Shown in pieces: positions 1,503 through 35,660 of a DNA stretch of 64,000 nt (position 1 is the first letter of the stretch; every line of letters starts with the position of its first letter). The notes under the pieces are model-generated. The model did not search any database. It saw only the letters and a list, made by a program, of their open reading frames with translations, and was not told the origin of the DNA. Where the stretch lies: assembly GCA_027324805.1 (NCBI GenBank), contig DAHVRZ010000001.1, positions 2,945-66,944 of the forward strand, read 5' to 3'. This DNA is from Candidatus Parcubacteria bacterium. Its GTDB lineage: Bacteria > Patescibacteriota > Minisyncoccia > UBA6257 > 2-01-FULL-56-20. Both the position numbers and the translations under genes were made by a program.

Positions 1503-3077
1503 ATGGCGAAAAAAGTCATGGTGCTCGTCGTGCTCGACGGATGGGGCATCGGCAGAAACGACGAATCGAATCCGATTTATGTGACGAAGCCGCAGACGTT
1601 CGCACATCTCGACGCGACCTACCCCGTAACGAGCCTGCAGGCTTCGGGTATTTCGGTCGGTCTGCCATGGGGCGAGGTCGGCAACAGCGAAGTGGGGCAT
1701 CTCACGCTCGGTGCCGGCAAGGTGCTCTATCAGTATTATCCGAAGATCACCATGGCGATCAGCGACGGATCGTTCTTCCAAAATAACGTACTGAAGGACG
1801 CCTGCGCCCACGCGCGCGCGACGGGCGGCGCAATCAATTTCGCCGGACTCCTTTCGAAAGGCAACGTTCATGCGTCGCTCGAGCATCTCCTTGCCCTTAT
1901 AAAAATGGCGAAGGGTGAGGGCGTGCCGCACATCAATCTCCATCTTTTCGCCGACGGCAAGGATGTTGCGCCGCACACGCTCGAGGGATATCTCCGCGAA
2001 CTGCCGAAGGAACATCTCGCCACGCTCATCGGACGCTATTATGCAATGGATCGCGAGGGTAACTGGTCGCTCACGGAGACCGCATACCAGCTCATGACCG
2101 GCATGGGCGGCATCGGCAAGCCTGCGGAGAACGCCGATGCGACGGCGATCATCGAGGAGAGCTGTAAGGGAGGGCAGACCGAAGAATATCTTCCGGCGAT
2201 ACGCTTCGTGGACGGCACCGGTGCCGGCGCCACGGACCACGGGCACGTAAAGGACGGCGACTCCCTCTTTTTTTTCAACTACCGCGAGGACAGCATCCAG
2301 CAGCTCGCATCCTCATTCATTCTCCCGGACTTCAATAAATTCACCGTCATGCCGTTCAGAGATCTGCACGTGGCGACGATGACGCATTACAATGACGCGT
2401 TCAACGTACCGGTCGCCTTCCCCGCCGATACCGTAGAGAACCCGCTCGGCAAAGTGCTCTCCGATGCCGGACTTACCCAACTCCGCCTTGCGGAGACGTA
2501 TAAATACGCGCACGTCACCTACTTCTTCAACGGCTACCGCGAGCCGCCCTATCCCGGAGAGTTCCGCACGCTCATTCCCTCCCTCACCGAGCTTCATCCG
2601 GAACAACATCCGGAGATGATGGCGGGTGCGATCACCGATCGGCTCATCGAGGCGATCCGCGACCGCGCGTTCGATTTCATTCTCGTGAACTATGCGAACG
2701 GCGACACCATCGCGCACACGGCCGACTATCAGGCATCGCTCGCAACGGTGAAAGTGATTGACCGCGAGATAGGACGCCTGCTCGCCGCCGTTGGCGACGA
2801 TCAGGACACGATCATCGCCATCACCTCGGACCACGGCCACATCGAATCGATGATTGACGAGGCGACCGGCCTTCCAAGAAGCCAGCATGCCCCGAATCCG
2901 GTCCCCTTCTATCTTGTCGCTCCCCAGATCAAGGGCCGGCGCTTCGTGAACGCCGATAATCTCACGCAAGAGATGCTCGGCTCTCTCGCCGACGTCGCTC
3001 CCACACTCCTCGCGCTCATGGGACGCCCCGCACCCGCCGACATGACGGGCCGCAGCATCCTGGACGGACTCATTTAG
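1503..3077 (+). CDS. gpmI: 2,3-bisphosphoglycerate-independent phosphoglycerate mutase (iPGM), copy 1
   Basis: 524 aa. VLVVLDGWGIG...GNSEVGHLTLGAGKV and the C-terminal TSDHGH metal-binding region are typical of iPGM. Extended -10 TGaTATACT lies about 8 nt upstream of the ATG. Confidence 0.92.
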   Translation: MAKKVMVLVVLDGWGIGRNDESNPIYVTKPQTFAHLDATYPVTSLQASGISVGLPWGEVGNSEVGHLTLGAGKVLYQYYPKITMAISDGSFFQNNVLKDACAHARATGGAINFAGLLSKGNVHASLEHLLALIKMAKGEGVPHINLHLFADGKDVAPHTLEGYLRELPKEHLATLIGRYYAMDREGNWSLTETAYQLMTGMGGIGKPAENADATAIIEESCKGGQTEEYLPAIRFVDGTGAGATDHGHVKDGDSLFFFNYREDSIQQLASSFILPDFNKFTVMPFRDLHVATMTHYNDAFNVPVAFPADTVENPLGKVLSDAGLTQLRLAETYKYAHVTYFFNGYREPPYPGEFRTLIPSLTELHPEQHPEMMAGAITDRLIEAIRDRAFDFILVNYANGDTIAHTADYQASLATVKVIDREIGRLLAAVGDDQDTIIAITSDHGHIESMIDEATGLPRSQHAPNPVPFYLVAPQIKGRRFVNADNLTQEMLGSLADVAPTLLALMGRPAPADMTGRSILDGLI

Positions 3078-9523: not shown

Positions 9524-9550
9524 AAAAACCGCCCCTACGGGGCGGTTTTT
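9524..9550. terminator. Bidirectional rho-independent terminator between convergent rnj and histidine phosphatase genes
   Basis: AAAAACCGCCCC-TAC-GGGGCGGTTTTT: perfect 7-bp GC stem flanked by an A-tract and a T-tract. Confidence 0.85.
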
Positions 9551-10209
9551 GTATTCTCCTCGGCGAGGTGGGCGTGGTCGTTGTAGATCCATACATTCCA
9601 CCTCGACCCTTCGCCGGATTTTTTTTCGCGGTATCGCAGGACGGTGAGTCCTGTGTTCTCCGTCTCCGACATTTTCTGGAATCTCCTGAACGCCTCGCCC
9701 GAGAGCAGATCGCCAAGCAGGATGCGCGCCGTGAGCGCGCGGAGGAAATAGCCATGGGTCACGACAAGCACCGACCGTTCCGGCCTTTCCTCGAGGAACA
9801 CCATCGCCTTTTCCGCGCGGGCCATGATGTCGTCGAAATTCTCTCCGTCCGCCACGCGCACCCCGGGCGTGTAGAGCGTCTCGTTCCACTCCCGCCAGAG
9901 CCTTGCCGCCTCTTCGTCGGTATGCGGGCTGCCGTTCACCCTTGCGGGCTTCATCCGCTCCACAAAAAGCGCCGATTCCTCCGGCCGCTTCCCCGTCGCC
10001 TTGGCGATCGCTTCCGCAGTCTCCGCGGCGCGGCGGTACGGGCTCGTTATGAACGCCTCGAAGGCGATGCTCCGCGCCCGCGCGGCGATCATCTCCGCCT
10101 GCTTCCGACCGCGGTCGCTGAGCGGCGAATCCGGCGACTGGAAGACGGGCGACACATTGTCCGCACTCTCCCCATGCCGCACGAAGTAGACTGTTTTCGC
10201 GGTGGACAT
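9535..10209 (-). CDS. Histidine phosphatase family protein (phosphoglycerate mutase-like branch)
   Basis: 224 aa. RHGE catalytic motif (VYFVRHGESADN), second motif SPYRRAAETA, C-terminal VVTHG catalytic His. Leaderless-type promoter (TGGTATGAT) just upstream. Confidence 0.85.
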   Translation of the reverse strand: MSTAKTVYFVRHGESADNVSPVFQSPDSPLSDRGRKQAEMIAARARSIAFEAFITSPYRRAAETAEAIAKATGKRPEESALFVERMKPARVNGSPHTDEEAARLWREWNETLYTPGVRVADGENFDDIMARAEKAMVFLEERPERSVLVVTHGYFLRALTARILLGDLLSGEAFRRFQKMSETENTGLTVLRYREKKSGEGSRWNVWIYNDHAHLAEENTKTAP

Positions 10210-11264: not shown

Positions 11265-14200
11265 TTAAATCTTCCTAAGGCCGATCCAGGCCTCCTGCCC
11301 TTCCATCTTTGCCGTTTCTTCGGCAAGGAATTTTTCTCCGTGTTTGTATTCGACGCGCGCGGCGCCGATCTCCGTCATGAATATCTTTTCATTGTGCACG
11401 AGGGCCTGTGCCGCTTCCGCCGGCAGTGACGCCATCGCGATGATCTTGTCCCTCGGCGAAAGTCCCGCCTTCTGGCGCAGTTCCTGGAACATGCGCACCG
11501 CTTCCCGGAGGAGGCCCTCCCGGCGAAGTTCCGGCGTGATCACAGTATCGAGCACCGGCTCCTTCGCTTTCGCGTTCACGATCACTTTTTTCACATTCAC
11601 TTCTTCCGCAAGGATCGCCTCAAGCTCTTTGCTTAATTTCACATTCACCGTGACCGAAGCGAGCGGCTGGCGAACCTTGATCCCCGCCTCCGCGCGCTTC
11701 GCGAGGCCCGCGGCCGCCGATTCCCGCACTACCGCCATTTCCGCAATTAGCTTTTTGCCTGCCGCGGGGAGTTTTGGCGCCTTGGGCCATGTTTCAAGAT
11801 GGACCGACTCCTTCATACCGCCGAGCGCGGCGTAGAGCCCTTCGCTCATGAACGGCGTGAATGGCGCCATCATTGCGACGACAGAGAGGAGGGTATGGCG
11901 AAGCGTCGCCGATGCGGCCTTATGATCCGCAGCGGTCGTCGGTTTTTGAAGACGGCGGCGCGAACGGCGGATATACCATCGGGAAAGATCATCCACGATC
12001 GCATCGAGCTCAAGCGCCGCTTCCCGGATCTCATAGCGGTCGAGTTTCGCCGTTACGGACGCCGCCGTTTCATCGAGCCGCGCGAGGATCCAGCGGTCGA
12101 GCACATTCTTCGGGTTCGCCTTCCGGCCGGCAACCGCAGGCGCGAGCTTCGCCCCCCTGTCCGCATACGTCTTCCAGAACACGAATGAGTTATAGACGAT
12201 GAGATGGGTGCGGCGGAACGCTTTTGCAATCTCGTTCTCGTCGAAATTCTTCGGCTCGCCGAACGGCGAACCGGTATAGAAGTACCAGCGGACGGCGTCC
12301 ACGCCGTATTTATCAATCACCGCAAACGGCTCCACGATATTACCCTTCGACTTCGACATTTTTTTGCCGAACTTGTCATTGATGAGACCGAACGTGATCA
12401 CATTGCGGTACGGCGCTTTGTGGCCGAGCGCGGTCGCGATCGCCATGAGCGTATAGAACCACCCGCGCGTCTGGTCCATGCCTTCGGCAATGTAATCCGC
12501 GGGATATTCGAGGCCGGACAGCGTTTTTATATTCGTCTTCGGAAGGGAGAAGGGATAATGGGCCTGCGCATAGGGCATCGCGCCGGAATCGTACCAGACG
12601 TCCGCCACCTCGCGCACACGCCTCATCGTCCCATGGGCGTTCTTTTTTGCGCACGCGGCACACGGGAATGCGATCTCGTCCACGAAAGGCCGATGGAGAT
12701 CAACTTCGCCGCTATCGTTGCGCGGCACGGTTTTCAGATGGAGTTCGCGCACATCGGCAAATCCGATGAATGCGCCTTTTTTTTCTTTGGCGCCGCGCTT
12801 CTCCATCTCTTCGATCGCACGCTTCTCGCTCCACCCTTCGGCCGTCTGGAAGAGCGCCCAGGCAGGATACTCATGAGTCACGACCAGGATGTTCTTTCCT
12901 TCATATTGCTTCTCGCAATCCTCAAGGAACTTCCATACTCGCGAACGTACGTCGCGCACCGACTCGCCTCCTTCGGGACGCTTCTCAAAGCGCGATTCGA
13001 GCGTCGGGAAGAATTCGCGGTACTTCTCGTCACGGAGACCCGTAAGCGACGGGCCAAGATGGATCTCTTCGAGCCGCTTATCGGCCGTACATTCCTTCGC
13101 CGGCACGCCGAGCTCCTTCATCGCAATCTCTGCGGTCTCGGACGTGCGCTCGATGTCGGAATGGATGATGAGGTCGATCTTCTCCCTCCTCTTCTTGAGC
13201 GCCGCCGCGAATGCCTTTGCCGACCGGGCGGCCTCTTTCTTTCCGCGCGGAGTGAGCTTGAGATATTTACGCTGGCCGGAATCGAGGATATCGAAAATGT
13301 TGCTCTCCGCCTCGCCATGGCGCATCACCCAGTAGCGGTTCTTGGAACCGCCCGCAAGCTGCGAAAGTTCGTCCATGCTCCCCACCACCTCCTTGTGACC
13401 GCACCCGGCGCATTCCCATACCGGCAGAGGCGCGCCCCAGTAGCGTTCGCGCGAGAGGTTCCAATCCTTCACTTCCCGGATCCATTCGCCGAAGCGGCCC
13501 TTCTTTACGTGGGCCGGCATCCAGTTCACGGAGGCGTTGTTCGCCTGAAGCTCTTTGCGCAGCCTGGACATTGCGATGAACCACGAGGTGCGCGCGTAAT
13601 AAAGCACCGGCGTACCGCACCGCCAGCAGAACGGATATTCGTGTGCGTACGGTTCCGTGCGGAGGAAATTACCGTGCGCTTTGAGATGCTCGAGCACCGC
13701 CTGTTCGGTCTCCTTCGCCTTGGCGTACATGCCCGCAAGCATCGGCACGTCCTTTGTGAACTTACCCTCGTCATCCACGGTATGGTGTTCCGGCAGGCCC
13801 TCCTTCTTTCCAAGCGCGTAGTCGTCCTCGCCATACATCACGGCCGTGTGCACCACGCCCGTGCCGTCGGTCGTCGTCACGAACGACGCCGGATATACCT
13901 TGTATGATTTCGGCGATCTCAATTTCTCCACATCGAAGAGCGGCTCGTATTCAAGGCCGACGAGCTGTTCGCCTTTCACCGCCCAAAACTTTCCCGCGCC
14001 TTCCAGTCCGAGACTCGCGATCCGATCCGTTGCCGCAATCAGATATTCGTCCCCGACCTCCACCGCGCGATACTCGATCTTCGGCCCGACCGCGAGCGCC
14101 ACGTTGCCCGGCAAGGTCCACGGCGTCGTCGTCCACGAAAGGATGTATATCGTATCGGAGGGCTGTATGACGTGGCTTCCGATCTTCTGCCCCGGCTTCA

Positions 14201-14882
14201 GTTTGAACTTCACATATACCGACGTATCGGTCACTTCCTGGTAGCCCTGTGCGAGCTCGTGCGACGAAAGCGCGGTTCCGCATCGGGTACACCACGGCAC
14301 CACCTTGTGGCCTTTATAGAGCAGATCGCGCTTTGCGAGCCGGGACAGGCTCCACCAGATGGATTCGATGTATTCCGGCGCGTAGGTCACGTACGCGTTC
14401 TTGAGATCCAGCCAATAACCGATGCGGCGGGTCATGCGCTCCCACTCGTCTTTATAGATCCAGACTTGCTCCTTTGCAGCCTCGTTGAACCTCTTGATGC
14501 CATATTGTTCGATGTCGCGCTTCGTTTTGAAGCCGAGCGCTTTTTCGGCAGCCATCTCGACAGGAAGGCCGTGCGTATCCCATCCCGCCCGGCGCGGAAC
14601 ATGGTATCCCTGCATGGTCTTGTAGCGAAGGACGACGTCTTTAACGACGCGGGAGAGCACGTGATGGATGCCGGGCTTGCCATTCGCATACGGAGGCCCT
14701 TCGTAAAACACGAACTCCTTCGAACCCTTCTTCTTCGCGAGGGATTTCTCGAAAATATGCCGCTCATCCCAGAATGCGAGCACTTTTTCTTCCGTACCGG
14801 GAAGATTGAATCCGTCACCGAGGAAATCGGGCGCACTTTTGGATGAAAGTGGCACTGCTTTACGTCGCTGTTTTTTGGGCAT
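11265..14882 (-). CDS. ileS: Isoleucyl-tRNA synthetase (type 2-like) carrying an inserted histidine-phosphatase domain
   Basis: 1205 aa. HHVLSR(HIGH-like)...KMSKS. CP1 editing domain present. Zn-knuckle region WECAGCG ... FPCAACAK is interrupted by about 210 aa (approx residues 513-722; nt approx 12717..13346) with an intact RHGE, SDIERTSETA and VVTHEY histidine-phosphatase signature. Confidence 0.9.
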   Translation of the reverse strand: MPKKQRRKAVPLSSKSAPDFLGDGFNLPGTEEKVLAFWDERHIFEKSLAKKKGSKEFVFYEGPPYANGKPGIHHVLSRVVKDVVLRYKTMQGYHVPRRAGWDTHGLPVEMAAEKALGFKTKRDIEQYGIKRFNEAAKEQVWIYKDEWERMTRRIGYWLDLKNAYVTYAPEYIESIWWSLSRLAKRDLLYKGHKVVPWCTRCGTALSSHELAQGYQEVTDTSVYVKFKLKPGQKIGSHVIQPSDTIYILSWTTTPWTLPGNVALAVGPKIEYRAVEVGDEYLIAATDRIASLGLEGAGKFWAVKGEQLVGLEYEPLFDVEKLRSPKSYKVYPASFVTTTDGTGVVHTAVMYGEDDYALGKKEGLPEHHTVDDEGKFTKDVPMLAGMYAKAKETEQAVLEHLKAHGNFLRTEPYAHEYPFCWRCGTPVLYYARTSWFIAMSRLRKELQANNASVNWMPAHVKKGRFGEWIREVKDWNLSRERYWGAPLPVWECAGCGHKEVVGSMDELSQLAGGSKNRYWVMRHGEAESNIFDILDSGQRKYLKLTPRGKKEAARSAKAFAAALKKRREKIDLIIHSDIERTSETAEIAMKELGVPAKECTADKRLEEIHLGPSLTGLRDEKYREFFPTLESRFEKRPEGGESVRDVRSRVWKFLEDCEKQYEGKNILVVTHEYPAWALFQTAEGWSEKRAIEEMEKRGAKEKKGAFIGFADVRELHLKTVPRNDSGEVDLHRPFVDEIAFPCAACAKKNAHGTMRRVREVADVWYDSGAMPYAQAHYPFSLPKTNIKTLSGLEYPADYIAEGMDQTRGWFYTLMAIATALGHKAPYRNVITFGLINDKFGKKMSKSKGNIVEPFAVIDKYGVDAVRWYFYTGSPFGEPKNFDENEIAKAFRRTHLIVYNSFVFWKTYADRGAKLAPAVAGRKANPKNVLDRWILARLDETAASVTAKLDRYEIREAALELDAIVDDLSRWYIRRSRRRLQKPTTAADHKAASATLRHTLLSVVAMMAPFTPFMSEGLYAALGGMKESVHLETWPKAPKLPAAGKKLIAEMAVVRESAAAGLAKRAEAGIKVRQPLASVTVNVKLSKELEAILAEEVNVKKVIVNAKAKEPVLDTVITPELRREGLLREAVRMFQELRQKAGLSPRDKIIAMASLPAEAAQALVHNEKIFMTEIGAARVEYKHGEKFLAEETAKMEGQEAWIGLRKI

Positions 14883-18798: not shown

Positions 18799-19806
18799 TT
18801 ACAGGTCTTCCGGATCGAGGATCACCCTGAGCTGGTTCAGATATGGATCAAGGATATCCCCCGAGATCACCGCGGCGATCCTGCTGCCGTCACTGTTCGC
18901 GGGAATCTTTTTCAAAAGATCGTCCGGCATCTCTTCGATGAACCGGTCGGCCCCTACTATGACCGCACCGGTACTCAGTCCGACCTTGAGGCCGTACCGA
19001 AGCGCCTGGACGGTCTTTTGATACGGCCGGTAACGGGACACTTTGACATGGTGCGTTCCCGCTTTCCAGTCGAACAATATCTGATCCGGTCCAAGCCTCT
19101 TCTCCGAACGAACCGCGGGGATCGGCTCATCGTCCTCGGTCATCACTCCGACCACGAGAGTCTCGGGGGAATGCTCTTTGCAATACTCCCGTGCGCCAAG
19201 CAAGGTTCCCGTCGTTCCCATAGAGGCAACGATTAGTCCTATTTTCATACCCACCGCTTCCGCCTGTTCGAAGATCTGGCCGATGGTGATGTCGCGGTGC
19301 GCCTGCCAGTTCACATCGTCTCCATATTGGTCGAATACGATATGATATTCCTTCTTCCCCATCTCACGGGCAAGTTGGACGCCGGTCTTTTGTCCGGCGA
19401 TCTTCCTGGTCAACACCAATTCTCCGCCGTCATCTCCGATGACCCTCCTGATCAAGACCTGCTTCTCAATAGGGGTATCTTCGGGCATGAACACGATGAT
19501 CTTCACGCCATAGGCCCGTGCAGTGGCGGCGCCCGCCAGTCCTCCACCGCCCGACGAGTTCATCACCACCGTAGTGTCCTTGGTAAAGACTCCCTCTTTT
19601 GCCCGCTCGGCGAACCATCGATAGGTGGGGACTATCTTAAAGGTGTGAAGCGCCGATTCGGGGCCCATCATCTTCAAGAGCATCCGAACCTTCTTCGTTG
19701 GGTTGCCCGCCAGTGCATAAGGAAGCTCAACACAGGACGTGGGTTCGTGCTGTGCCATGTCCAGATAGTTCTTTGTTGCATCCGGACCGATAAAGATGTT
19801 CTTCAT
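18799..19806 (-). CDS. PLP-dependent enzyme, fold type II (cysteine synthase / Trp-synthase-beta superfamily)
   Basis: 335 aa. Gly-rich phosphate-binding loop NSSGGGGLAGAATARAYG. Putative lysine-containing NPTKK segment near the N-terminus. Substrate unknown. Confidence 0.7.
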   Translation of the reverse strand: MKNIFIGPDATKNYLDMAQHEPTSCVELPYALAGNPTKKVRMLLKMMGPESALHTFKIVPTYRWFAERAKEGVFTKDTTVVMNSSGGGGLAGAATARAYGVKIIVFMPEDTPIEKQVLIRRVIGDDGGELVLTRKIAGQKTGVQLAREMGKKEYHIVFDQYGDDVNWQAHRDITIGQIFEQAEAVGMKIGLIVASMGTTGTLLGAREYCKEHSPETLVVGVMTEDDEPIPAVRSEKRLGPDQILFDWKAGTHHVKVSRYRPYQKTVQALRYGLKVGLSTGAVIVGADRFIEEMPDDLLKKIPANSDGSRIAAVISGDILDPYLNQLRVILDPEDL

Positions 19807-20962: not shown

Positions 20963-21097
20963 AATAGAGGCATCATATCACGCTCCCGCGGGTCACGCAT
21001 CTTTTTCCCGCCGTAAAACATTGCTTTATTCTTTAAAATGTTTTATAATTTCTCCAGTTGCTGCCCTTAAACACAGCGGCAAACAATGGAGGAGAAA

Positions 21098-21904
21098 ATG
21101 GGATTCTTTTATATGCCAGGAGAGATGTGCATGGCCGAATTCGTTCAGCCTCGCGTCACCGGTGCAGACCTCAACTACCAGGGATCGATCACCATCGATC
21201 GGGAAGCGCTCGATGTTTCGGGCCTGCTCCCCGGCCAGATGGTCTATATCGACAACGTAGTGCGCAGGGGTCCATCATGGCGCACTTACATCGTCCCCGG
21301 CGAACCCGGGAAAGGCGAAATCATCATGAACGGGCCGCCGGCCTATCACTTCAAAAAAGGCGATCCTGTCACGATCCGCGGAAGCGCCTTCATTCCCTTC
21401 GGGGATATGCCGAGCATGGCCCATGGCCATACGAAGGTATATTTCTCCCAGGGCGAAAGGGTGCCGAATCGCGTAAAGCGCCTGGAGCATATTCCAATCC
21501 CCGCCACACACTGGCGGCAGATGTGCATCAGCAAACTCCACCGTCTTGTGATCACGGGGACTTCCCCTGAAGGACCCGAAGAGCTTGTGGTGGACGGCGA
21601 CATCCTTGATGCCGCGGGATTTCCCCCGGGGATCGAGGTGCAGTTCACCAGCTTGCGCGACGGCGTCCTTCGCCGGACGTGCGTGCAGGCAGGCCCTCGC
21701 GGAACAGGTGCCGCCGAAATCCATGGATCCGGCGCGCAGTACATCGCAGCCGGAGTGAGAGTGGTCACACTTGCGGAAGTTTTGCTTCCTTACGAGGATG
21801 CCGCAAAAGTCCACGGACCCCAGGTCGCATTCTTCGACGAATCCCGGACCGACCGCAACATCATCCGAGAAGTGAAGATTGGATGGCGGCCAGCCTCCTC
21901 TTAA
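21098..21904 (+). CDS. Tandem (duplicated) aspartate-1-decarboxylase-like protein: two PanD-like double-psi beta-barrel domains fused
   Basis: Domain 1 (QPRVTGADLNYQGSITID...WRTYIV) keeps the Gly-Ser pro-enzyme cleavage site and the Arg/Thr-Tyr residues. Domain 2 (KLHRLVITGTSPEGPEE...LDAAG...NGAAA...PQVAFFDE) keeps KLHR but has Glu in place of the pyruvoyl Ser. Start ambiguous (ATGs at 21086, 21098, 21113, 21131; SD-supported at 21098 and 21131). Confidence 0.7.
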   Translation: MGFFYMPGEMCMAEFVQPRVTGADLNYQGSITIDREALDVSGLLPGQMVYIDNVVRRGPSWRTYIVPGEPGKGEIIMNGPPAYHFKKGDPVTIRGSAFIPFGDMPSMAHGHTKVYFSQGERVPNRVKRLEHIPIPATHWRQMCISKLHRLVITGTSPEGPEELVVDGDILDAAGFPPGIEVQFTSLRDGVLRRTCVQAGPRGTGAAEIHGSGAQYIAAGVRVVTLAEVLLPYEDAAKVHGPQVAFFDESRTDRNIIREVKIGWRPASS

Positions 21905-21931
21905 TACCGATTTATTCGGGTATGCAATCGG

Positions 21932-21962
21932 GCCCGCCATCATATTCCGGCGGGCTTTTTCT
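21932..21962 (+). terminator. Rho-independent terminator after the PanD-like gene
   Basis: GCCCGCC...GGCGGGC stem followed by TTTTTCTTTTC. Confidence 0.6.
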
Positions 21963-21986
21963 TTTCACTATTCTCACCGTACAAAA

Positions 21987-26416: not shown

Positions 26417-26929
26417 GGGTCCTATTATATCACCGATCGGCTCTCGTGTCGCGGTCGTCATCGCCTCCAAAATCCGAATTTGATATTATGAATACAGGAG
26501 GGGACCATGAAATTCCTGACCATGATACCCGAGCCGGACCGGTCGGCGGTGCGCCTGTGCGGCAATGAGTACGATATAACCCTGAAACAGATAGGAAACT
26601 CCCTGCAGATGAAGCGGGTGGAGATGCAGATCATCACCGGCGAGCATTGCATCAATCGCGTGAATCCCCGGCGGATCCCGTCATCCCTTGTTTCGCTCGG
26701 CACGGCGTGGGGAAACGAATTGTTCGAGTGTGTACAGGAGGCACTCATGCACAATCCCCGCATATTCGATCGGGCGGCCGCTTATGCCGTCGAATCATCC
26801 GCCTCCCCTTCCGAATCTCCCCTCGCGGTCACTCTTTTCGAGTACCGGGGCAGATGAACGCCATCCATGAACCGCGGCTTCCCCAGCGCGGTTCTTTTTT
26901 TGGAAGAGCTCATCGTTTATACTATGCGC

Positions 26930-28246
26930 ATGAACATAAAAACCATTCGCGCGCGGCAGATCCTTGATTCGCGCGGCAACCCAACCGTGGAGGCGGACGT
27001 TATTTTGGAAAACGGCGCAACGGGACGCGCGGCGGTCCCTTCCGGCGCTTCGACGGGCAGCCACGAGGCGATCGAACTTCGCGACGGCAATCCAAAACTC
27101 TACGGAGGGAAGGGCGTATTGAACGCGGTGGCGAACGCACAAAGCGAGATTGCGGCCGCGGTCACCGGCATGGATGCCGAGGATCAGAAAGCGCTCGACG
27201 AAAAGATGATCGCGCTCGACGGCACTCCGAACAAATCGCGGCTTGGCGCGAATGCGATCCTCGCGGTCTCGCTTGCATCCGCCAAAGCGGCGGCGGCGGC
27301 GAAGGGCGTCCCTTTTTTTGAGCACGTGAACGGACTCGGACGTGCGGCTGGCATCGCCGATGACGGCGGCGGCGCGACGCTTCCCGTGCCGATGATGAAC
27401 ATCATAAACGGCGGCAGGCACGCGGCCGGTTCGACCGATATCCAGGAATTCATGATCATTCCCGCCGGAGCGACGACATTCTCCGATGCGCTCCGCATGG
27501 GCACCGATATTTTCCATGCATTGAAGAAAGTGCTCGCGGGCAAGGGCTATGGCACGACGGTCGGCGACGAAGGCGGCTACGCGCCATCCGTAAAAGGAGG
27601 CAACGCCGAAGCGCTCGACCTTATCGGCGCAGCCGTATCCGCCGCAGGCTACACGCTCGGCACGGACGTCATGCTCGCGCTCGATGTTGCGGCATCGGAA
27701 CTCCGCGATCCTTCCTTTAATAACGGCGCCGGCGGCTATCGCCTTGCCACCGAAGACCGCTCGCTCTCGACCGACGAGATGATCGCCTGGCTCAAAGCGC
27801 TCGCAGAGAAATATCCGATCGCCTCCATCGAGGACGGCCTCGGCGAGGACGACTGGGCCGGATGGACCTCGATGACCGCCGCCATCCCACGACAGCTCGT
27901 CGGCGACGATCTCCTTGTTACGAATACCGAATTCCTTTCGCGCGCCATCGGCGAAAAGGCGGGCAACGCGATCCTCATCAAGCCGAACCAGATCGGCACG
28001 CTCACCGAAACGATCGCCGCGATAAAAATGGCGAAAGATGCGGGCTGGCGCACCATCATTTCTCACCGCTCCGGCGAAACGGAGGATGTGACGATCGCCC
28101 ACCTTGCCGTCGGGCTCGGCACGGGACAGATCAAGACCGGCTCGCTCTCGCGCACCGACCGCGTGGCGAAATACAACGAACTGCTCCGCATCGAAGAGAC
28201 TCTCGGCGCAAAAGCAACCTATCCCGGCAAGAAGATTTATGGATAA
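26930..28246 (+). CDS. eno: Enolase (phosphopyruvate hydratase)
   Basis: [25 protein letters not shown]-terminus. TATACT hexamer 6 nt upstream of this ATG (the ORF also has ATGs at 26924 and 26867). Stop overlaps the gpmI copy 2 start (ATGGATAA). Confidence 0.92.
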
Positions 28247-29825
28247 GATCAGGCCCGTAGCCCTGATCATCCTCGACGGCTGGGGTCACCGGGAAGACGC
28301 CTCTCATAACGCCATCGCCAAAGCACGCACGCCCTTCTTTGATTCGCTCCTTGCGCGCTATCCGCACACGCTTCTCGACGCGAGCGAGGAATACGTCGGC
28401 CTGCCGCACGGCCAGATGGGCAACAGCGAGATCGGCCATATGACGATGGGGGCCGGACAGGTCATTGACGTCGATCTCGTGAAGATCAACAAGGCCGCCG
28501 AGCACGGAGCATTTTCGACGAATCCCGCTTTCACCGAGCTCTTCGACCATGTGAAACGCCACGATGCCACCCTGCATGTGATGGGGCTTGTCGGCACGGG
28601 CGGCGTACATAGCCATCAGAACCATCTTCATGCATTCCTCCGCGCCGCGAAAGCGACAGGTATAACGAAGGTCGCCGTTCACGCAATTACCGATGGGCGC
28701 GATCTTCCTCCGCAAAGCGCCGCAAACCATCTCCGCGAACTCGAGGCGCTCCTCGCCGATCTCGGCATCGGCTTCATTGCCACCATGGGCGGCCGTTTCT
28801 ATGCCATGGACCGCGATAAGAACTGGGACCGCGTCGGGAAGGCCGAAGCGGCGGTCTTTGAAGGCAATGCTGCCCGGCGCGAATCCCGCACGCCGTCCGC
28901 AGTACTCGAAGAGTTATATAAAGAGGGCGTGATGGATGAACACCTTGAACCGGTCGTATTCCTCGACGGCATCGGCAGGAATGGAGCGGCGGGCGACGGG
29001 GGTGCAGCGTGGACGATCGGCGCGCACGACGGCGTTTTCTTCTTCAACTTCCGCCCCGACCGGGCACGCCAGATGACGGAGCGGTTCCTTGCGCACAGGA
29101 ATCCGCTCGATCTCTTCATTGTCACGCTCACCGAATACGACAAAACGCTCACTGCCGCCGGCGCTCACGTGGCATTCCCGCAAAGCCGTGCCACAACCTC
29201 GCTTGCAGCTGAGATCGCGGCCGGCGGACTCACGCAGGCGCACATCGCCGAAACGGAAAAGTATGCGCATGTCACCTATTTTTTCAATGGAGGCAACGAA
29301 GCGCCGCACAAGGGCGAACGATTCTATCTTATCGAGAGCCGCAAAGACGTTGCAACGCACGACCTTGCGCCCGAAATGCGAGCAAAGGAGATCGCGGATA
29401 CGGCAATCGAACGTATCGCCGCAGGTGATGATTTTCTCGTGGTGAATTTCGCGAACGCCGATATGGTCGGCCATACGGCAAACCGTCCGGCGATCGTGGC
29501 CGCGGTGGAAACCGTGGACCTCGAACTCCGGCGCATCGTGGATGCCATCCTCGCGCGCACCGGCGCGGCGATCGTAACGGCGGACCATGGCAATGCGGAA
29601 ATGAACAGAGATCCCGAGACCGGCGCACGCCACACCGCACATACCACGAATCTCGTCCCTTTTGTCGTCGCGTCAGACAACCCATTATTACATCTCCGTA
29701 CACGCGGCAGGACTGATGCCGGTCATGAAGCGTCAGGCACACTCGCCGATATCGCACCCACCATCCTCCATCTTCTCGGTCTTCCTGTTCCCGAAGGCAT
29801 GACGGGAAGAAACATGATCGAATAA
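28239..29825 (+). CDS. gpmI: 2,3-bisphosphoglycerate-independent phosphoglycerate mutase (iPGM), copy 2, translationally coupled to eno
   Basis: [20 protein letters not shown]...[15 protein letters not shown]. Roughly 35-40% identical to copy 1 by eye. Start ATG overlaps the enolase stop. Confidence 0.9.
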
Positions 29826-30204: not shown

Positions 30205-31722
30205 TTACGCGAATCCCGGGAAAAAATCGCTCTTGATACGGAAGCGGGACACGCCCATATCCTTCAATGTTTTTTCGAACGCTTCGACCATCGCATGGGG
30301 GCCGGAGATGTAGAACGTGCGATCCCGATAATCCGGGATCTGCCTCATAATGAGGCCCGCATCGATCTTCCCTGCATACACCCCGGACGACGAAGCATTC
30401 CCGTCCGTCACGGCATACACCGTTCGCACGCCGAGCTCGGTCCGTGCCCTTTCGAGGATATCGCCATAAGCGATATCATCGGGTGCCTTGTTCGAATACA
30501 GCACTACGATATCGCGCTGTTCACCTTTGTCCAAAAGATAACGGATCATACTTCTGAACGGCGTGATGCCTATGCCTCCGGCAATGAATACAAGCTTTTT
30601 CTTTTTATTCCTCGGCAGAACAAATCCACCCGAAAGATGAGCCGCGGATATTCGGTCGCCCACCTTCATCGCCGCAAGCGTCTGTTTGAACGTGCTTGCC
30701 TTTGGATAGAACTTCACGCCGAGGCGCACGGTGCTCTCCGTCGGCGCCGACGCAAGCGTAAAGTATCGCCGATTGCCGCGATTGTCCGAACCATCGTGCG
30801 CAAGCGTCCACTCCATGTACTGACCCGGCGCGAACGAGAACCTTCTGTCAGGAGAGAACACAAAGTCGTACGCGTCATTCGCAGCTTCTTCAATGCGCTT
30901 CAGTGTAAGCATATAGCGTCCTTTAGGGCTTACGATATATGAAAAGATGTTTCCAATAAGGAGCGCGAGCTCCGGCGAGAGATAGAATCCCCCTATATTC
31001 ACATTCGGCGCAAAAAGGAATCCAACGAGTGCGCCGTACGCGATGCGCAATGGGCGATTCGGGGGCGTGGTGAGCGGCTCCGTGAGCATGATAAACGCGA
31101 AGAAAAAGAACGCCGAATGGATTATCGTCTGCACGATCGCGGTCCACGCATTCCCCTGCCCCGCGGTCACCGCGGACGTCACGAGCGCCACGAGTGCGAA
31201 GCTTGCCACAAGGTCCGTCCTCTGAATCTTGCGCACAACGAGCAATCCTCCGACAAGAACGAACGGAAGGAGCGCAAGATTGCCTCCGACCCACCACGTT
31301 GCGGCGCGGCCGATAAGCAGCGCGGAAAGTGCGGCACCGAATGCGGCGGGATTGAAAAGATGCCGCTTGCCGAGCGCAAAAAGATATTTCGATGCCATCG
31401 CCCAGACGGAAACGAAGATAAGGAATCCTATGCCGGCGGCATCGGTCGCAACGGCCGGCGGAATAATGAGCGCAAGGATGAACGCCGTGATGTATACGGA
31501 CTCGACATTCGTGACCGCATCGAACACTTTTGCAAAGATCCAATTTGCGGCGATGCATACGGCCATAATGACCGCCGCCGAGAAGACAAGCTCCGCGGGA
31601 CCGAACGGGAGGATACCGAAGAAACTGAACACAAATGCCGCTCCAAGGAGAACCTCAAGATAGTAGAGCACCAGACGATACATGGTCGTCCGATTCAGGA
31701 TATTATCGATCCATTTGGGCAT
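30205..31722 (-). CDS. Membrane flavoprotein oxidoreductase: polytopic N-terminal domain (RnfD/NqrB-like, LFNPAAF motif) fused to a ferredoxin-NADP-reductase-like FAD/NAD(P)H-binding module
   Basis: 505 aa. About 9 TM helices then RRYFTLAS (RxYS-type FAD motif) and GGIGITP (NAD(P)-binding GGxGxxP). Confidence 0.7.
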   Translation of the reverse strand: MPKWIDNILNRTTMYRLVLYYLEVLLGAAFVFSFFGILPFGPAELVFSAAVIMAVCIAANWIFAKVFDAVTNVESVYITAFILALIIPPAVATDAAGIGFLIFVSVWAMASKYLFALGKRHLFNPAAFGAALSALLIGRAATWWVGGNLALLPFVLVGGLLVVRKIQRTDLVASFALVALVTSAVTAGQGNAWTAIVQTIIHSAFFFFAFIMLTEPLTTPPNRPLRIAYGALVGFLFAPNVNIGGFYLSPELALLIGNIFSYIVSPKGRYMLTLKRIEEAANDAYDFVFSPDRRFSFAPGQYMEWTLAHDGSDNRGNRRYFTLASAPTESTVRLGVKFYPKASTFKQTLAAMKVGDRISAAHLSGGFVLPRNKKKKLVFIAGGIGITPFRSMIRYLLDKGEQRDIVVLYSNKAPDDIAYGDILERARTELGVRTVYAVTDGNASSSGVYAGKIDAGLIMRQIPDYRDRTFYISGPHAMVEAFEKTLKDMGVSRFRIKSDFFPGFA

Positions 31723-31729
31723 CGGATGA

Positions 31730-32314
31730 TTATGCTTTTGCCTGCGCGAGCGCCGAGGCGAGCGACTGCTGGAATGCCTGGCTCGTGAACGTCGCGCCCG
31801 AGACGATGTTCACGTTCGCGCTCTGGGCCGCAATGGCCTCCTGCGTGAGATAAGGCATCGCCTGCTCGTTGATGAAAACCGACGTGCTGTGCGTGTTCGG
31901 ATACTGGAGGAACTTCACGTCCGTCAGCTTGCCGCCCTGAACAACCGCCTCGACCTGGACCGTGCCGTAATAGGCATCCGCCTGGCCGCCGGTATAGGTT
32001 CCATCGGTATACTGCCCTTTTGGCTTCGGCGCTTGCGTCGGCGCCGGAGATGATGTCGCGCCGGAAGAGCTTCCGGATGGAGCTGCGGCACCCGAAGAAG
32101 ATTGACCCAAAGAGGCGGATGACCGGCTACCGGAAGGAGGGTTCCCCGCCGCCTGATTCCCCGAGGAGGAGGGCGCGGTCGTTGCCGTGCCGCTGTTCTC
32201 TGCGATCGCGGGCGTCGTTGCCGAGGGCGCCGTCGAAGCCGCTCCTTGGCCCATGAACACCATATAGAACGCGGAGGCCGCGATAAGTCCCAGTGAAACG
32301 AGGAATTTCTTCAT
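31730..32314 (-). CDS. Secreted FMN-binding domain protein (RnfG/NqrC-like)
   Basis: Start at MKKFLVSLGLIAASAF (signal peptide). Low-complexity Ser/Gly linker. C-terminal FMN_bind domain with the flavinylation motif VSGATFTS (Thr target of ApbE-type flavin transferase). Immediately upstream of, and co-directional with, the reductase gene. Confidence 0.75.
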   Translation of the reverse strand: MKKFLVSLGLIAASAFYMVFMGQGAASTAPSATTPAIAENSGTATTAPSSSGNQAAGNPPSGSRSSASLGQSSSGAAAPSGSSSGATSSPAPTQAPKPKGQYTDGTYTGGQADAYYGTVQVEAVVQGGKLTDVKFLQYPNTHSTSVFINEQAMPYLTQEAIAAQSANVNIVSGATFTSQAFQQSLASALAQAKA

Positions 32315-32427
32315 GGAATACGAAGGGTTTCTTTCCTGATAGTACGCAAGCAAACTCGGGTTTTATGCGTTACGCACTGTAATTCCCGCGCGGCGCGTAC
32401 TATCATTAAATATCATCAATCGGCACT

Positions 32428-34703: not shown

Positions 34704-35660
34704 ATGCCGACGCGGAAGAATATCATCATCTGGATAAAATATTCCCAAAAGGAAATCTTCTCGCCGTACTATCATAAAGGCCCATCATATCTCGCCCTTC
34801 TCGGGGAGCTGTACGGACGCGGACACCGCGTATTCCTCTCGTTCGGCGCCGCGGATCTGCACGGAGAAGATGCCTTCTTTTCTCCGGCGGCGGAATACCG
34901 GGACGGCGCCCTGCAGGCGCCGGAGTCCGCAGATCCGGTCCGCGCCGATGTTATTTATAACCTGGGCAATATCCCTGCTATTCATGGGGTGTCGCCCATT
35001 ACGAACACGCCTGCGTTCAGGACATTTTTCGCCTCAAAGTATGCTGCTTATGAACTTCTGCGCGAATTCTTCCCCCGGACGATACGCGTGAAACGGAAAG
35101 AGGATCTTTCGGCGGCGCTCGCGCAATTGCCCAATGAACGTGCGGTATTCAAACCGGACACAGGCACGAATGGACGCGGTGTAACGATGATGAAAAGAGG
35201 CGGGACGGCATTCAACGAAGAAATGTGCGCGATCATCGCCGAACCGGGAGGCGCGATCCTTCAGGAATTCGTTGACACAGCGTCGGGCATCTCTGGCGCA
35301 TGCGATTCATATCACGATCTGCGCATTGTCGTTATGAACAGGGGGGTCATCGCGCTCACGCACGTGCGCATCCCCGAACCCGGCAGTCTTATCGCCAACT
35401 ACGCACAGGGTGCGACCATCCGCGAACTTTCGCCGGCGGATCTCCCCAAAAGCGTCCTTACACTTCACCGCGCCGTTTATGAAACGATCGCCGCACGATT
35501 CCCGAATCCGATGTATACGATGGATGCGGGCATCGGCGCGGATGGACGGCCTCTTCTCTTTGAGATCAACGGTACGACAGCATTCCCCTGGCCCGGATTC
35601 GCAGGGAAAGAATTCTTTATAAAAACCCTGGCAGAGCACCTTGAGAAGCAGATGCTATAA
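34704..35660 (+). CDS. ATP-grasp domain protein of unknown specificity (RimK/glutathione-synthetase-like fold)
   Basis: 318 aa. Central KPDTGTNGRGV (Lys plus Gly-rich ATP loop) and C-terminal LFEINGTTAFP resemble ATP-grasp enzymes. Extended -10 TGGTATAGT ends 6 nt before the ATG (leaderless). Confidence 0.6.
   Translation: MPTRKNIIIWIKYSQKEIFSPYYHKGPSYLALLGELYGRGHRVFLSFGAADLHGEDAFFSPAAEYRDGALQAPESADPVRADVIYNLGNIPAIHGVSPITNTPAFRTFFASKYAAYELLREFFPRTIRVKRKEDLSAALAQLPNERAVFKPDTGTNGRGVTMMKRGGTAFNEEMCAIIAEPGGAILQEFVDTASGISGACDSYHDLRIVVMNRGVIALTHVRIPEPGSLIANYAQGATIRELSPADLPKSVLTLHRAVYETIAARFPNPMYTMDAGIGADGRPLLFEINGTTAFPWPGFAGKEFFIKTLAEHLEKQML

Follow-up and report, generated by a model that had tools for sequence, protein, structure and literature searches.

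A tandem PanD-fold protein of Patescibacteria with a predicted active site divided between complementary halves

How is an active site that spans two subunits divided when two copies of the subunit are joined in one chain, and on what does the resulting protein act? In PanD, the active site is of this kind, with the pyruvoyl group at position 25, Thr57 and Tyr58 contributed by one subunit and Lys9* and Arg54* by its neighbour (marked here by the asterisk) (PMC3314653; PMC6969166). The question is raised by a gene for a tandem PanD-like protein in 64,000 nucleotides (nt) of DNA from a Candidatus Parcubacteria bacterium (GenBank assembly GCA_027324805.1, contig DAHVRZ010000001.1, positions 2,945 to 66,944 of the forward strand), the whole of which is referred to as the window. 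An earlier reading of the letters, made without database searches (the sequence-only reading), had described two PanD-like domains in one polypeptide that retain complementary catalytic residues. Taken as a whole, the comparative evidence makes it fairly probable that the protein is a pyruvoyl-dependent α-decarboxylase of the PanD fold, duplicated and fused, with complementary half-sites and with a pyridoxal phosphate (PLP)-dependent enzyme and a CofE-like protein as partners, and that its substrate is probably not L-aspartate. The coordinates of all features are collected in Table 1.

Both domains of the tandem protein have the PanD fold. The open reading frame (ORF) of 272 amino acids (aa) is uninterrupted; a stop codon or frameshift near the KLHR motif at the junction, which the sequence-only reading had named as a sign of two separate genes, was not found. 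Pfam PF02261 (Asp_decarbox) matched two stretches of the protein (E = 4e-31; 107.7 bits against a cut-off of 25), an E-value at which the likeness to PanD is not a matter of chance. In a sequence search of the PDB, residues 14–125 matched E. coli PanD (8e-11) and residues 168–253 matched PanD alpha chains (2e-5). The AlphaFold2 model, built with 17 sequences, was confident throughout, linker included (predicted local distance difference test score 89.6, predicted template modelling score 0.86), and Foldseek aligned PanD chains with it at template modelling (TM) scores of 0.82–0.90, normalised to the target. All matches with a Foldseek E-value below 1e-4 were PanD, as were the sequence matches, and no homology with the AdoMetDC/SpeD fold was seen among them. 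No solved chain spanning both domains was found among the Foldseek structure matches. The two-domain description was thus borne out, and the structure search returned PanD chains where a different family would have spoken against it.

A search of 5.8 billion proteins identified 16 homologues with the tandem architecture (59–92% identity), 15 of them essentially full-length and one partial. All derive from metagenomes or metagenome-assembled genomes (MAGs); those that carry a name are listed as aspartate 1-decarboxylase of Patescibacteria or Paceibacterota, and one of the loci belongs to a Candidatus Kaiserbacteria MAG. The junction H-W-R-Q-M-C-I-S-K-L-H-R is common to the 16 homologues, with H142, R144, C147, S149 and K150 invariant, and two separate assemblies of this sequence agree on it. 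Because the junction recurs in 16 homologues from independent metagenomes, an artefact of assembly or frameshift was rejected.

To compare the halves, both were aligned with the PanD of E. coli and that of M. tuberculosis, with 40 canonical PanDs and with 27 single-domain relatives; PanD positions are given in E. coli numbering, and counts refer to 16 sequences of domain 1 and 17 of domain 2. Domain 1 of the window protein retains Tyr31, Gly33-Ser34, Trp65, Thr67, Tyr68, Asn82, Gly83, Pro84 and Pro85. Across the family, Tyr22, Gly24, Ser25, Thr57, Tyr58, Asn72 and Gly73 are kept in 16/16 domain 1 sequences. Domain 2 also keeps Thr57 and Gly73; it has an invariant Gly-Pro-Glu at positions 22–24, Ala, Glu, Gly or Thr (mostly Ala) in place of Ser25, Cys, Ser or Arg in place of Tyr58, and Gln, His, Tyr or Arg in place of Asn72. 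The opposite distribution was observed for Lys9, His11 and Arg12, each present in 17/17 domain 2 sequences: in domain 1, Lys9 is replaced by Glu in all 16 (Glu18 here), His11 by Val (Val20 here), and Arg12 is lost. Position 86, Ile in PanD, is Thr in 16/16 domain 1 sequences and Val or Ile in domain 2. In PanD, activation depends on Thr57, and Tyr58 donates the proton (PMC3975893). With the pyruvoyl-side residues in domain 1 and Lys9 and His11 in domain 2, the chain consists of a 'cis' half followed by a 'trans' half.

A census of the 32 positions whose conservation among the single-domain relatives is 85% or more revealed the same division. Eight are kept in both domains, 15 in domain 1 only (all of them pyruvoyl-side) and four in domain 2 only (Lys9, His11, Arg12 and Ala35); the remaining five, all of them non-catalytic, are retained by neither domain. 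Identity among homologues is 61–75% for domain 2 versus 45–64% for domain 1, which indicates that domain 2 is under selection. A decaying pseudo-domain was rejected on this ground, as the conservation of domain 2 exceeds that of domain 1. The alignments strongly support the view that each domain keeps the half of the active site that the other has lost and that the protein would form one kind of composite site. We infer that this would be a single pseudo-dimeric active site, built either within one chain or between two chains.

Much of this had been anticipated by the sequence-only reading, whose details fared unevenly. Its observation that domain 1 lacks the N-terminal Lys agrees with Glu18 at the Lys9 position, and five of the motifs it quoted are present (NYQGS at residues 30–34, WRTYIV at 65–70, KLHR at 150–153, LDAAG at 174–178 and PQVAFF at 245–250). 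A sixth, NGAAA, is absent from domain 2; the motif aligned to it is H-G-S-G-A (212–216), and NGAAA was probably a misreading of TGAAE at 207–211. The reading was right that Glu replaces the pyruvoyl-forming Ser of domain 2, and misplaced it: the residue is Glu166 of G-P-E-E, not the Glu of TSPEG. It had also grouped Arg54 with the pyruvoyl-forming Ser25, which is the wrong side of the site, as Arg54* joins Lys9* from the neighbouring subunit (PMC3314653, PMC6969166).

Further tandems were sought exhaustively with HMMER among 1.84 billion cluster representatives, and two more came to light: P0050 (274 aa) and P0070, which clusters with P0181 (272–281 aa), at 27–30% identity to the window protein. 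In these, Gly-Ser, Thr57, Tyr58 and Asn72 are retained in domain 1, from which Lys9, His11 and Ile86 have been lost; domain 2 retains Lys9, His11, Arg54 and Ile/Leu86, whereas its Thr57, Tyr58 and Asn72 are gone. Their halves best-match differing canonical single-domain PanDs and show weak matches to the halves of the window family; both halves of the window family best-match the same Patescibacterial single-domain proteins (P0021, P0022, P0167 and P0168). This pattern indicates three independent duplications. A single ancient fusion at the origin of all tandem PanDs was rejected, because the halves of each family best-match differing single-domain PanDs. The recurrence of the same partition in three separate tandem families is the strongest support for the idea of complementary halves, and the complementary retention claimed from the letters alone holds in all 16–17 members of the window family as well as in the two independent ones.

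The two additional families resemble the window protein in domain order, with the pyruvoyl half followed by the Lys9/His11 half, and in their complementary loss. They differ in their canonical origin (Arg54, and Ala74-Ala75 or a near variant), in having Arg54 in domain 2, and in their gene neighbourhoods. The shared order could reflect chance (about 1 in 4), geometry or a benefit of splitting off no more than a short beta chain. The gene for P0050 (L012:4066-4890) comes after one for a 932-aa fusion of a 2-hydroxyacid dehydrogenase with an FAD oxidase, and a malonyl-coenzyme A (CoA) decarboxylase gene is near. P0017, a PanD N-terminus joined to a riboflavin-synthase-like tail, has a chimeric look and was not used.

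The nearest relatives of the window protein constitute a single-domain PanD-like subfamily with at least 7,693 matches in a profile search. Among the 117 new sequences within the best 120 of the 7,693 matches, Asn-Gly-Pro-Pro was found in 115 and Tyr-x-Gly-Ser in all. Trp55 and Pro74-Pro75 are invariant in the subfamily, and position 54 is occupied by Phe, Leu, His or Ser, not by Arg. The tandem protein has the defining features of the subfamily, with all pocket residues in domain 1 and Lys9 and His11 in domain 2. The Trp55/Asn-Gly-Pro-Pro proteins (P0021, P0022, P0352), common in Paceibacterota, represent the direct ancestor of the tandem: they share with it the domain 1 pocket residues, a C-terminal G-W-R-P tail and syntenic PLP-enzyme and CofE-like neighbours. 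They differ in being about 125–135 aa long, in each having the full residue set and in presumably forming homotetramers, whereas the tandem would be a subfunctionalised pair. Canonical PanD (PF02261, TIGR00223; E. coli 1AW8/1PPY, M. tuberculosis 6OYY) is like the tandem in fold, catalytic residues and the expected inter-barrel site; unlike it, canonical PanD has one barrel per chain, Arg54 and Ala74-Ala75. A further Pro-Pro-type PanD-like protein, P0172 (159 aa), is encoded on a phage-like contig (L017:6001-6480 and L018:6001-6480), flanked by genes for a Hint-domain protein and a radical-SAM-like protein, with tail genes adjoining.

These substitutions bear directly on the substrate. In M. 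tuberculosis PanD, three contacts fix the carboxylate at the site of the substrate's side chain: the backbone NH of Ala74, that of Ala75, and Arg54* (PMC6969166). Ala74 and Ala75 are present in 40/40 canonical PanDs, while Pro74 and Pro75 occupy these positions in 16/16 domain 1 sequences and 27/27 single-domain relatives; domain 2 has Gly-Ser-Gly at positions 73–75. Position 54, Arg in 39/40 canonical PanDs, is Pro, Ser or Ala in domain 1 and Leu, Ile or Met in domain 2. Since proline has no backbone NH and Arg54 is absent, all three known determinants of aspartate side-chain binding are missing from both the subfamily and the tandem. A precedent for a substrate other than L-aspartate is CrpG, a PanD-homologue β-methylaspartate α-decarboxylase of cryptophycin biosynthesis (PMC6471175). 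Unlike the tandem, CrpG is single-domain, and its substrate still has a distal carboxylate.

Based on these residues, we propose the following mechanism. A single-domain gene would have been duplicated in tandem and fused, and the copies would then have lost complementary halves of the active site. Domain 1 is predicted to cleave itself between Gly33 and Ser34, with Ser34 converted to the pyruvoyl group, yielding a short beta chain (about 3.3–3.8 kDa) and a pyruvoyl-headed alpha chain (about 26 kDa). The masses calculated from the sequence are 3,290.8 Da (start at 21098) or 3,808.4 Da (start at 21086) for the beta chain and, with Ser34 still unconverted, 26,079.5 Da for the alpha chain, residues 34–272. 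The same domain would provide Thr67, Tyr68 as proton donor, Asn82, Trp65 and Pro84-Pro85. Domain 2, which is expected to be uncleavable, would donate Lys150, His152, Arg153, Ile/Val86 and perhaps Arg196/Arg197. The assembly is likely to be a dimer of tandems that mimics the tetramer ring of PanD, with two live and two dead interfaces; alternatively to a role in the site, Arg196-Arg197 might, together with Glu18, Arg66 and Glu165, fill the dead interface by salt bridges.

The gene neighbourhood offers clues to the pathway. Judged by gene order, the tandem gene sits in a conserved three-gene module of Patescibacteria composed of PanD-like, CofE-like and PLP-enzyme genes. The CofE fold of the 357-aa neighbour was confirmed, and the family to which this neighbour belongs is extensive and strongly conserved in Patescibacteria (827 matches, the best 120 at 64–81% identity). 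The PLP enzyme of the window has CysM as its best PDB match (2e-19) and scores far under every NCBIfam cut-off. A PALP gene adjoins PanD-like genes at eight loci (L004, L007, L008, L016, L022, L027, L028 and L029), and a PLP-enzyme gene comes after the tandem genes of P0012 (L004–L006) and L022 and after the single-domain genes of P0021 and P0022. The divergent arrangement of the window is also found at L020. In a Kaiserbacteria locus (L007, identical to L026), the trio occurs in another order and orientation, with the CofE-like protein 67% and the PLP enzyme 28% identical to those of the window. A Paceibacterota MAG (L028) has the window arrangement, except that its PanD is a single-domain protein of 129 aa; identity to the window proteins is 48% for the PLP enzyme and 68% for the CofE-like protein. 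L016 and L004 are likewise syntenic with each other. By the synteny at these loci, the tandem is the positional orthologue of a single-domain gene.

Natural fusions of a complete single-domain PanD of the subfamily with a CofE-like protein were identified as well (P0255 at L019:6001-7425, P0210 and P0273; about 472–488 aa), the PanD part carrying KIHR, GS, WQTY and NGPPA. At L019, a PLP-enzyme gene lies near P0255, and a PAPS-reductase-family gene adjoins the PALP gene. In two non-Patescibacterial genomes, a Pro-Pro PanD-like gene forms an operon with genes for cysteine dioxygenase (CDO; PF05995), a 489-aa TPR protein and a PLP enzyme (L027:6275-9670 and L029:5428-8803), which suggests a pyruvoyl-dependent cysteine-sulfinate decarboxylase there. 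Two further observations concern the partner genes. The PLP enzymes of the window (18799-19806, minus strand), L007:9965-10987, L004:7345-8400 and L008:3260-4243 are 18–28% identical, and their PanD-like and CofE-like partners 58–68%, suggesting very fast evolution or repeated non-orthologous replacement. A YheC/D-type ATP-grasp gene lies 13 kb from the tandem gene (window 34704-35660, plus strand), and in an Alicyclobacillaceae genome the gene for the Pro-Pro-type P0028 is divergent from a gene of the same ATP-grasp family (L014:4767-5918); this ATP-grasp protein may be another amide-ligase partner.

In the pathway that we propose from this context, the PLP enzyme would make a β-substituted alanine, the PanD-like enzyme would decarboxylate it to an amine, and the CofE-like ligase would join the amine with a carboxylate. 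Decarboxylation would precede amide formation, because a pyruvoyl enzyme needs a free α-amino group. Our leading guess for the substrate is a sulfur-containing amino acid, namely cysteine, cysteine sulfinate or cysteate, as suggested by the hydrophobic pocket (Leu/Phe54*, Trp55, Pro74, Pro75), the CysK-like partner and the CDO operon. The broader proposal, that the Trp55/Pro-Pro enzymes, the tandem included, are sulfur amino acid rather than aspartate decarboxylases that pass an amine to a CofE-fold ligase in an undescribed pathway, is speculative and, on balance, unlikely. Under it, cysteine sulfinate would be converted to hypotaurine beside CDO, and Patescibacteria would convert cysteine to cysteamine or cysteate to taurine; the Patescibacterial amine would go directly to the widespread CofE-fold ligase, sometimes fused with the decarboxylase, giving an amide-linked cysteamine or taurine metabolite. 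In one conceivable version, this would be a route from (phospho)pantothenate to (phospho)pantetheine independent of CoaB and CoaC.

Several facts weigh against our interpretation. In a rival reading, the protein is an ordinary aspartate 1-decarboxylase whose β-alanine goes into pantothenate and CoA or serves some other purpose, and the tandem architecture is only a structural variant. In its favour, fold and catalytic core match PanD. Scored with the NCBI panD equivalog TIGR00223 (cut-off 106 bits), the single-domain relatives reach 110–127 bits and are annotated as aspartate 1-decarboxylase, so aspartate may still be the substrate. The invariant Arg196/Arg197 pair, one or two positions from the Arg54 site, could replace Arg54. 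The idea of a sulfur substrate comes only from gene context; four of about nine tandem loci whose flanks could be used have neither partner nearby (L001, L003, L021 and L023), and the neighbouring PLP enzymes are mutually divergent (18–48% identity). The neighbourhood statistics are thin, the tandem loci numbering one in reference genomes and seven in metagenome contigs, most of them short. What speaks for a different substrate is the loss of Arg54 from both domains together with the change of Ala74-Ala75 to Pro-Pro. Moreover, the whole tandem falls under the equivalog cut-off at 102.2 bits (59.6 for domain 1 and 44.0 for domain 2; E. coli PanD, 228), a scan of roughly 40 ORFs of the window turned up no panB, panC or coa gene, and the partners are CysK-like, CofE-like and, elsewhere, CDO. 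We therefore regard an ordinary PanD as unlikely, and the conversion of L-aspartate to β-alanine implied by the sequence-only reading as doubtful.

Less likely again is a reading in which catalysis is left to domain 1, and domain 2 is a scaffold or a regulatory pseudo-domain, for example one for activation or partner binding. Domain 2 does lack the cleavage site, Tyr58 and Asn72, and degraded second domains are known from a V. vadensis SpeD fusion and from eukaryotic AdoMetDC (PMC10407285). However, sites made from domain 1 only would be incomplete, as Lys9, His11 and Ile86 are missing from it in 16/16 sequences, and domain 2 invariantly keeps these residues in three independent families, with Arg54 too in two of them. 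It is highly improbable that the protein as a whole is a pseudoenzyme without activity or that the fusion is an artefact of assembly or frameshift: nothing specific favours this beyond the score under the panD equivalog cut-off, whereas all the pyruvoyl-side and trans-side catalytic residues are kept in the chain and strongly conserved, and the junction recurs in 16 homologues of independent origin and in two assemblies. The interpretation we favour thus remains that of a fused decarboxylase with complementary half-sites.

Table 1. Location of the tandem PanD-like gene, its predicted functional residues and its flanking features in the window
Feature	Position	Strand	Basis or remark
CysK/CysM/SbnA-like PLP-dependent enzyme gene, 335 aa	18799..19806	-	PF00291
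CofE-fold amide-ligase-like gene, 357 aa	19889..20962	-	divergent from tandem PanD gene
Divergent intergenic region, CofE-like gene / tandem PanD gene	20963..21085		ORF map
Tandem PanD-like ORF	21086..21904, stop codon 21902-21904	+	ORF list, Pfam, homologues, AlphaFold2
Shine-Dalgarno-like GGAGGA	21088..21093	+	4 nt before ATG 21098, read from sequence
Domain 1, pyruvoyl ('cis') half, aa 13-145	21122..21520	+	alignment, PDB match
Gly33-Ser34, predicted self-cleavage site (PanD Gly24-Ser25)	21182..21187	+	16/16 domain 1
Trp65-Arg66-Thr67-Tyr68 (PanD positions 55-58)	21278..21289	+	alignment
Asn82-Gly83-Pro84-Pro85 (PanD Asn72-Gly73-Ala74-Ala75)	21329..21340	+	alignment
Domain 2, 'trans' half, aa 146-272	21521..21901	+	alignment, PDB match
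Lys150-Leu-His152-Arg153 (PanD Lys9, His11, Arg12)	21533..21544	+	invariant, 17/17
Gly163-Pro164-Glu165-Glu166, degenerate former cleavage loop (PanD Tyr22-Glu23-Gly24-Ser25)	21572..21583	+	G-P-E invariant
Arg196-Arg197-Thr198 (PanD positions 55-57)	21671..21679	+	invariant
Terminator-like hairpin, 9-bp GC-rich stem, 10-nt loop, then TTTTTCTTTT	21930..21965	+	folding free energy -16.8 kcal/mol, z -3.84

Regarding the boundaries of the gene, the ORF has an alternative start at ATG 21098, where the sequence-only reading had begun the protein and which gives 268 aa. Versions of 272 and 268 aa both occur among public gene calls; with the Shine-Dalgarno-like hexamer ahead of it, ATG 21098 is likely the true start. 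Downstream, the terminator-like hairpin begins 26 nt after the stop codon and has a T-run after its GC-rich stem; it was spotted by reading the letters and then folded, and a consensus terminator scan gave nothing. A consensus sigma-70 promoter scan of the divergent intergenic region found none.

Other features of the window are recorded here in their own right. A class I tRNA synthetase of the I/L/M/V type (1204 aa; 11265-14882, minus strand) has a His_Phos_1 domain inserted at residues 517–687, and a stand-alone His_Phos_1 gene is located close to it (9535-10209, minus strand). Two paralogous genes encode cofactor-independent phosphoglycerate mutases (iPGM_N plus Metalloenzyme; 1503-3077 and 28104-29825, both plus strand). 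At 30205-32353 (minus strand), an RnfD/NqrB-like membrane domain and an NAD-binding oxidoreductase domain share one chain of 505 aa, with an FMN_bind protein encoded beside it, an unusual finding in a small Patescibacteria-like genome. Two overlapping ORFs lie on opposite strands, one of 491 aa with no Pfam match (26795-28270, minus strand) and one of 459 aa (26867-28246, plus strand).

In the literature, we found no account of a tandem PanD, of this gene module or of PanD in Patescibacteria, none on CofE-like proteins in the candidate phyla radiation or on CoA synthesis in Patescibacteria, and no description of pyruvoyl cysteine-sulfinate decarboxylases. To our knowledge, the only precedent among pyruvoyl enzymes is S-adenosylmethionine decarboxylase (AdoMetDC), which has an unrelated fold. 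The class 2 (eukaryotic) AdoMetDC and the bacterial SpeD1-SpeD2 fusions whose second domain is degraded resemble the tandem in that two homologous halves are fused and only one has the self-processing serine; unlike in the tandem, the second half is degraded or differs in activity, and complementary retention of trans residues is not how these fusions are described (PMC10407285). The resemblance is one of analogy, not homology.

Together, the tandem PanD proteins would provide a clean natural case of duplication, fusion and complementary loss in an active site that spans an interface, reached in the same way three times, and they may be useful for the study of how homo-oligomers become pseudo-hetero-oligomers. 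Beyond the fusion, a large group of proteins that carry the annotation aspartate 1-decarboxylase, in Patescibacteria and in other lineages, has none of the known determinants of aspartate side-chain binding. If the substrate is indeed a sulfur amino acid, a systematic annotation error would be corrected and an unrecognised small-molecule pathway would come to light in organisms of minimal metabolism, a pathway that could outweigh the architecture in importance.

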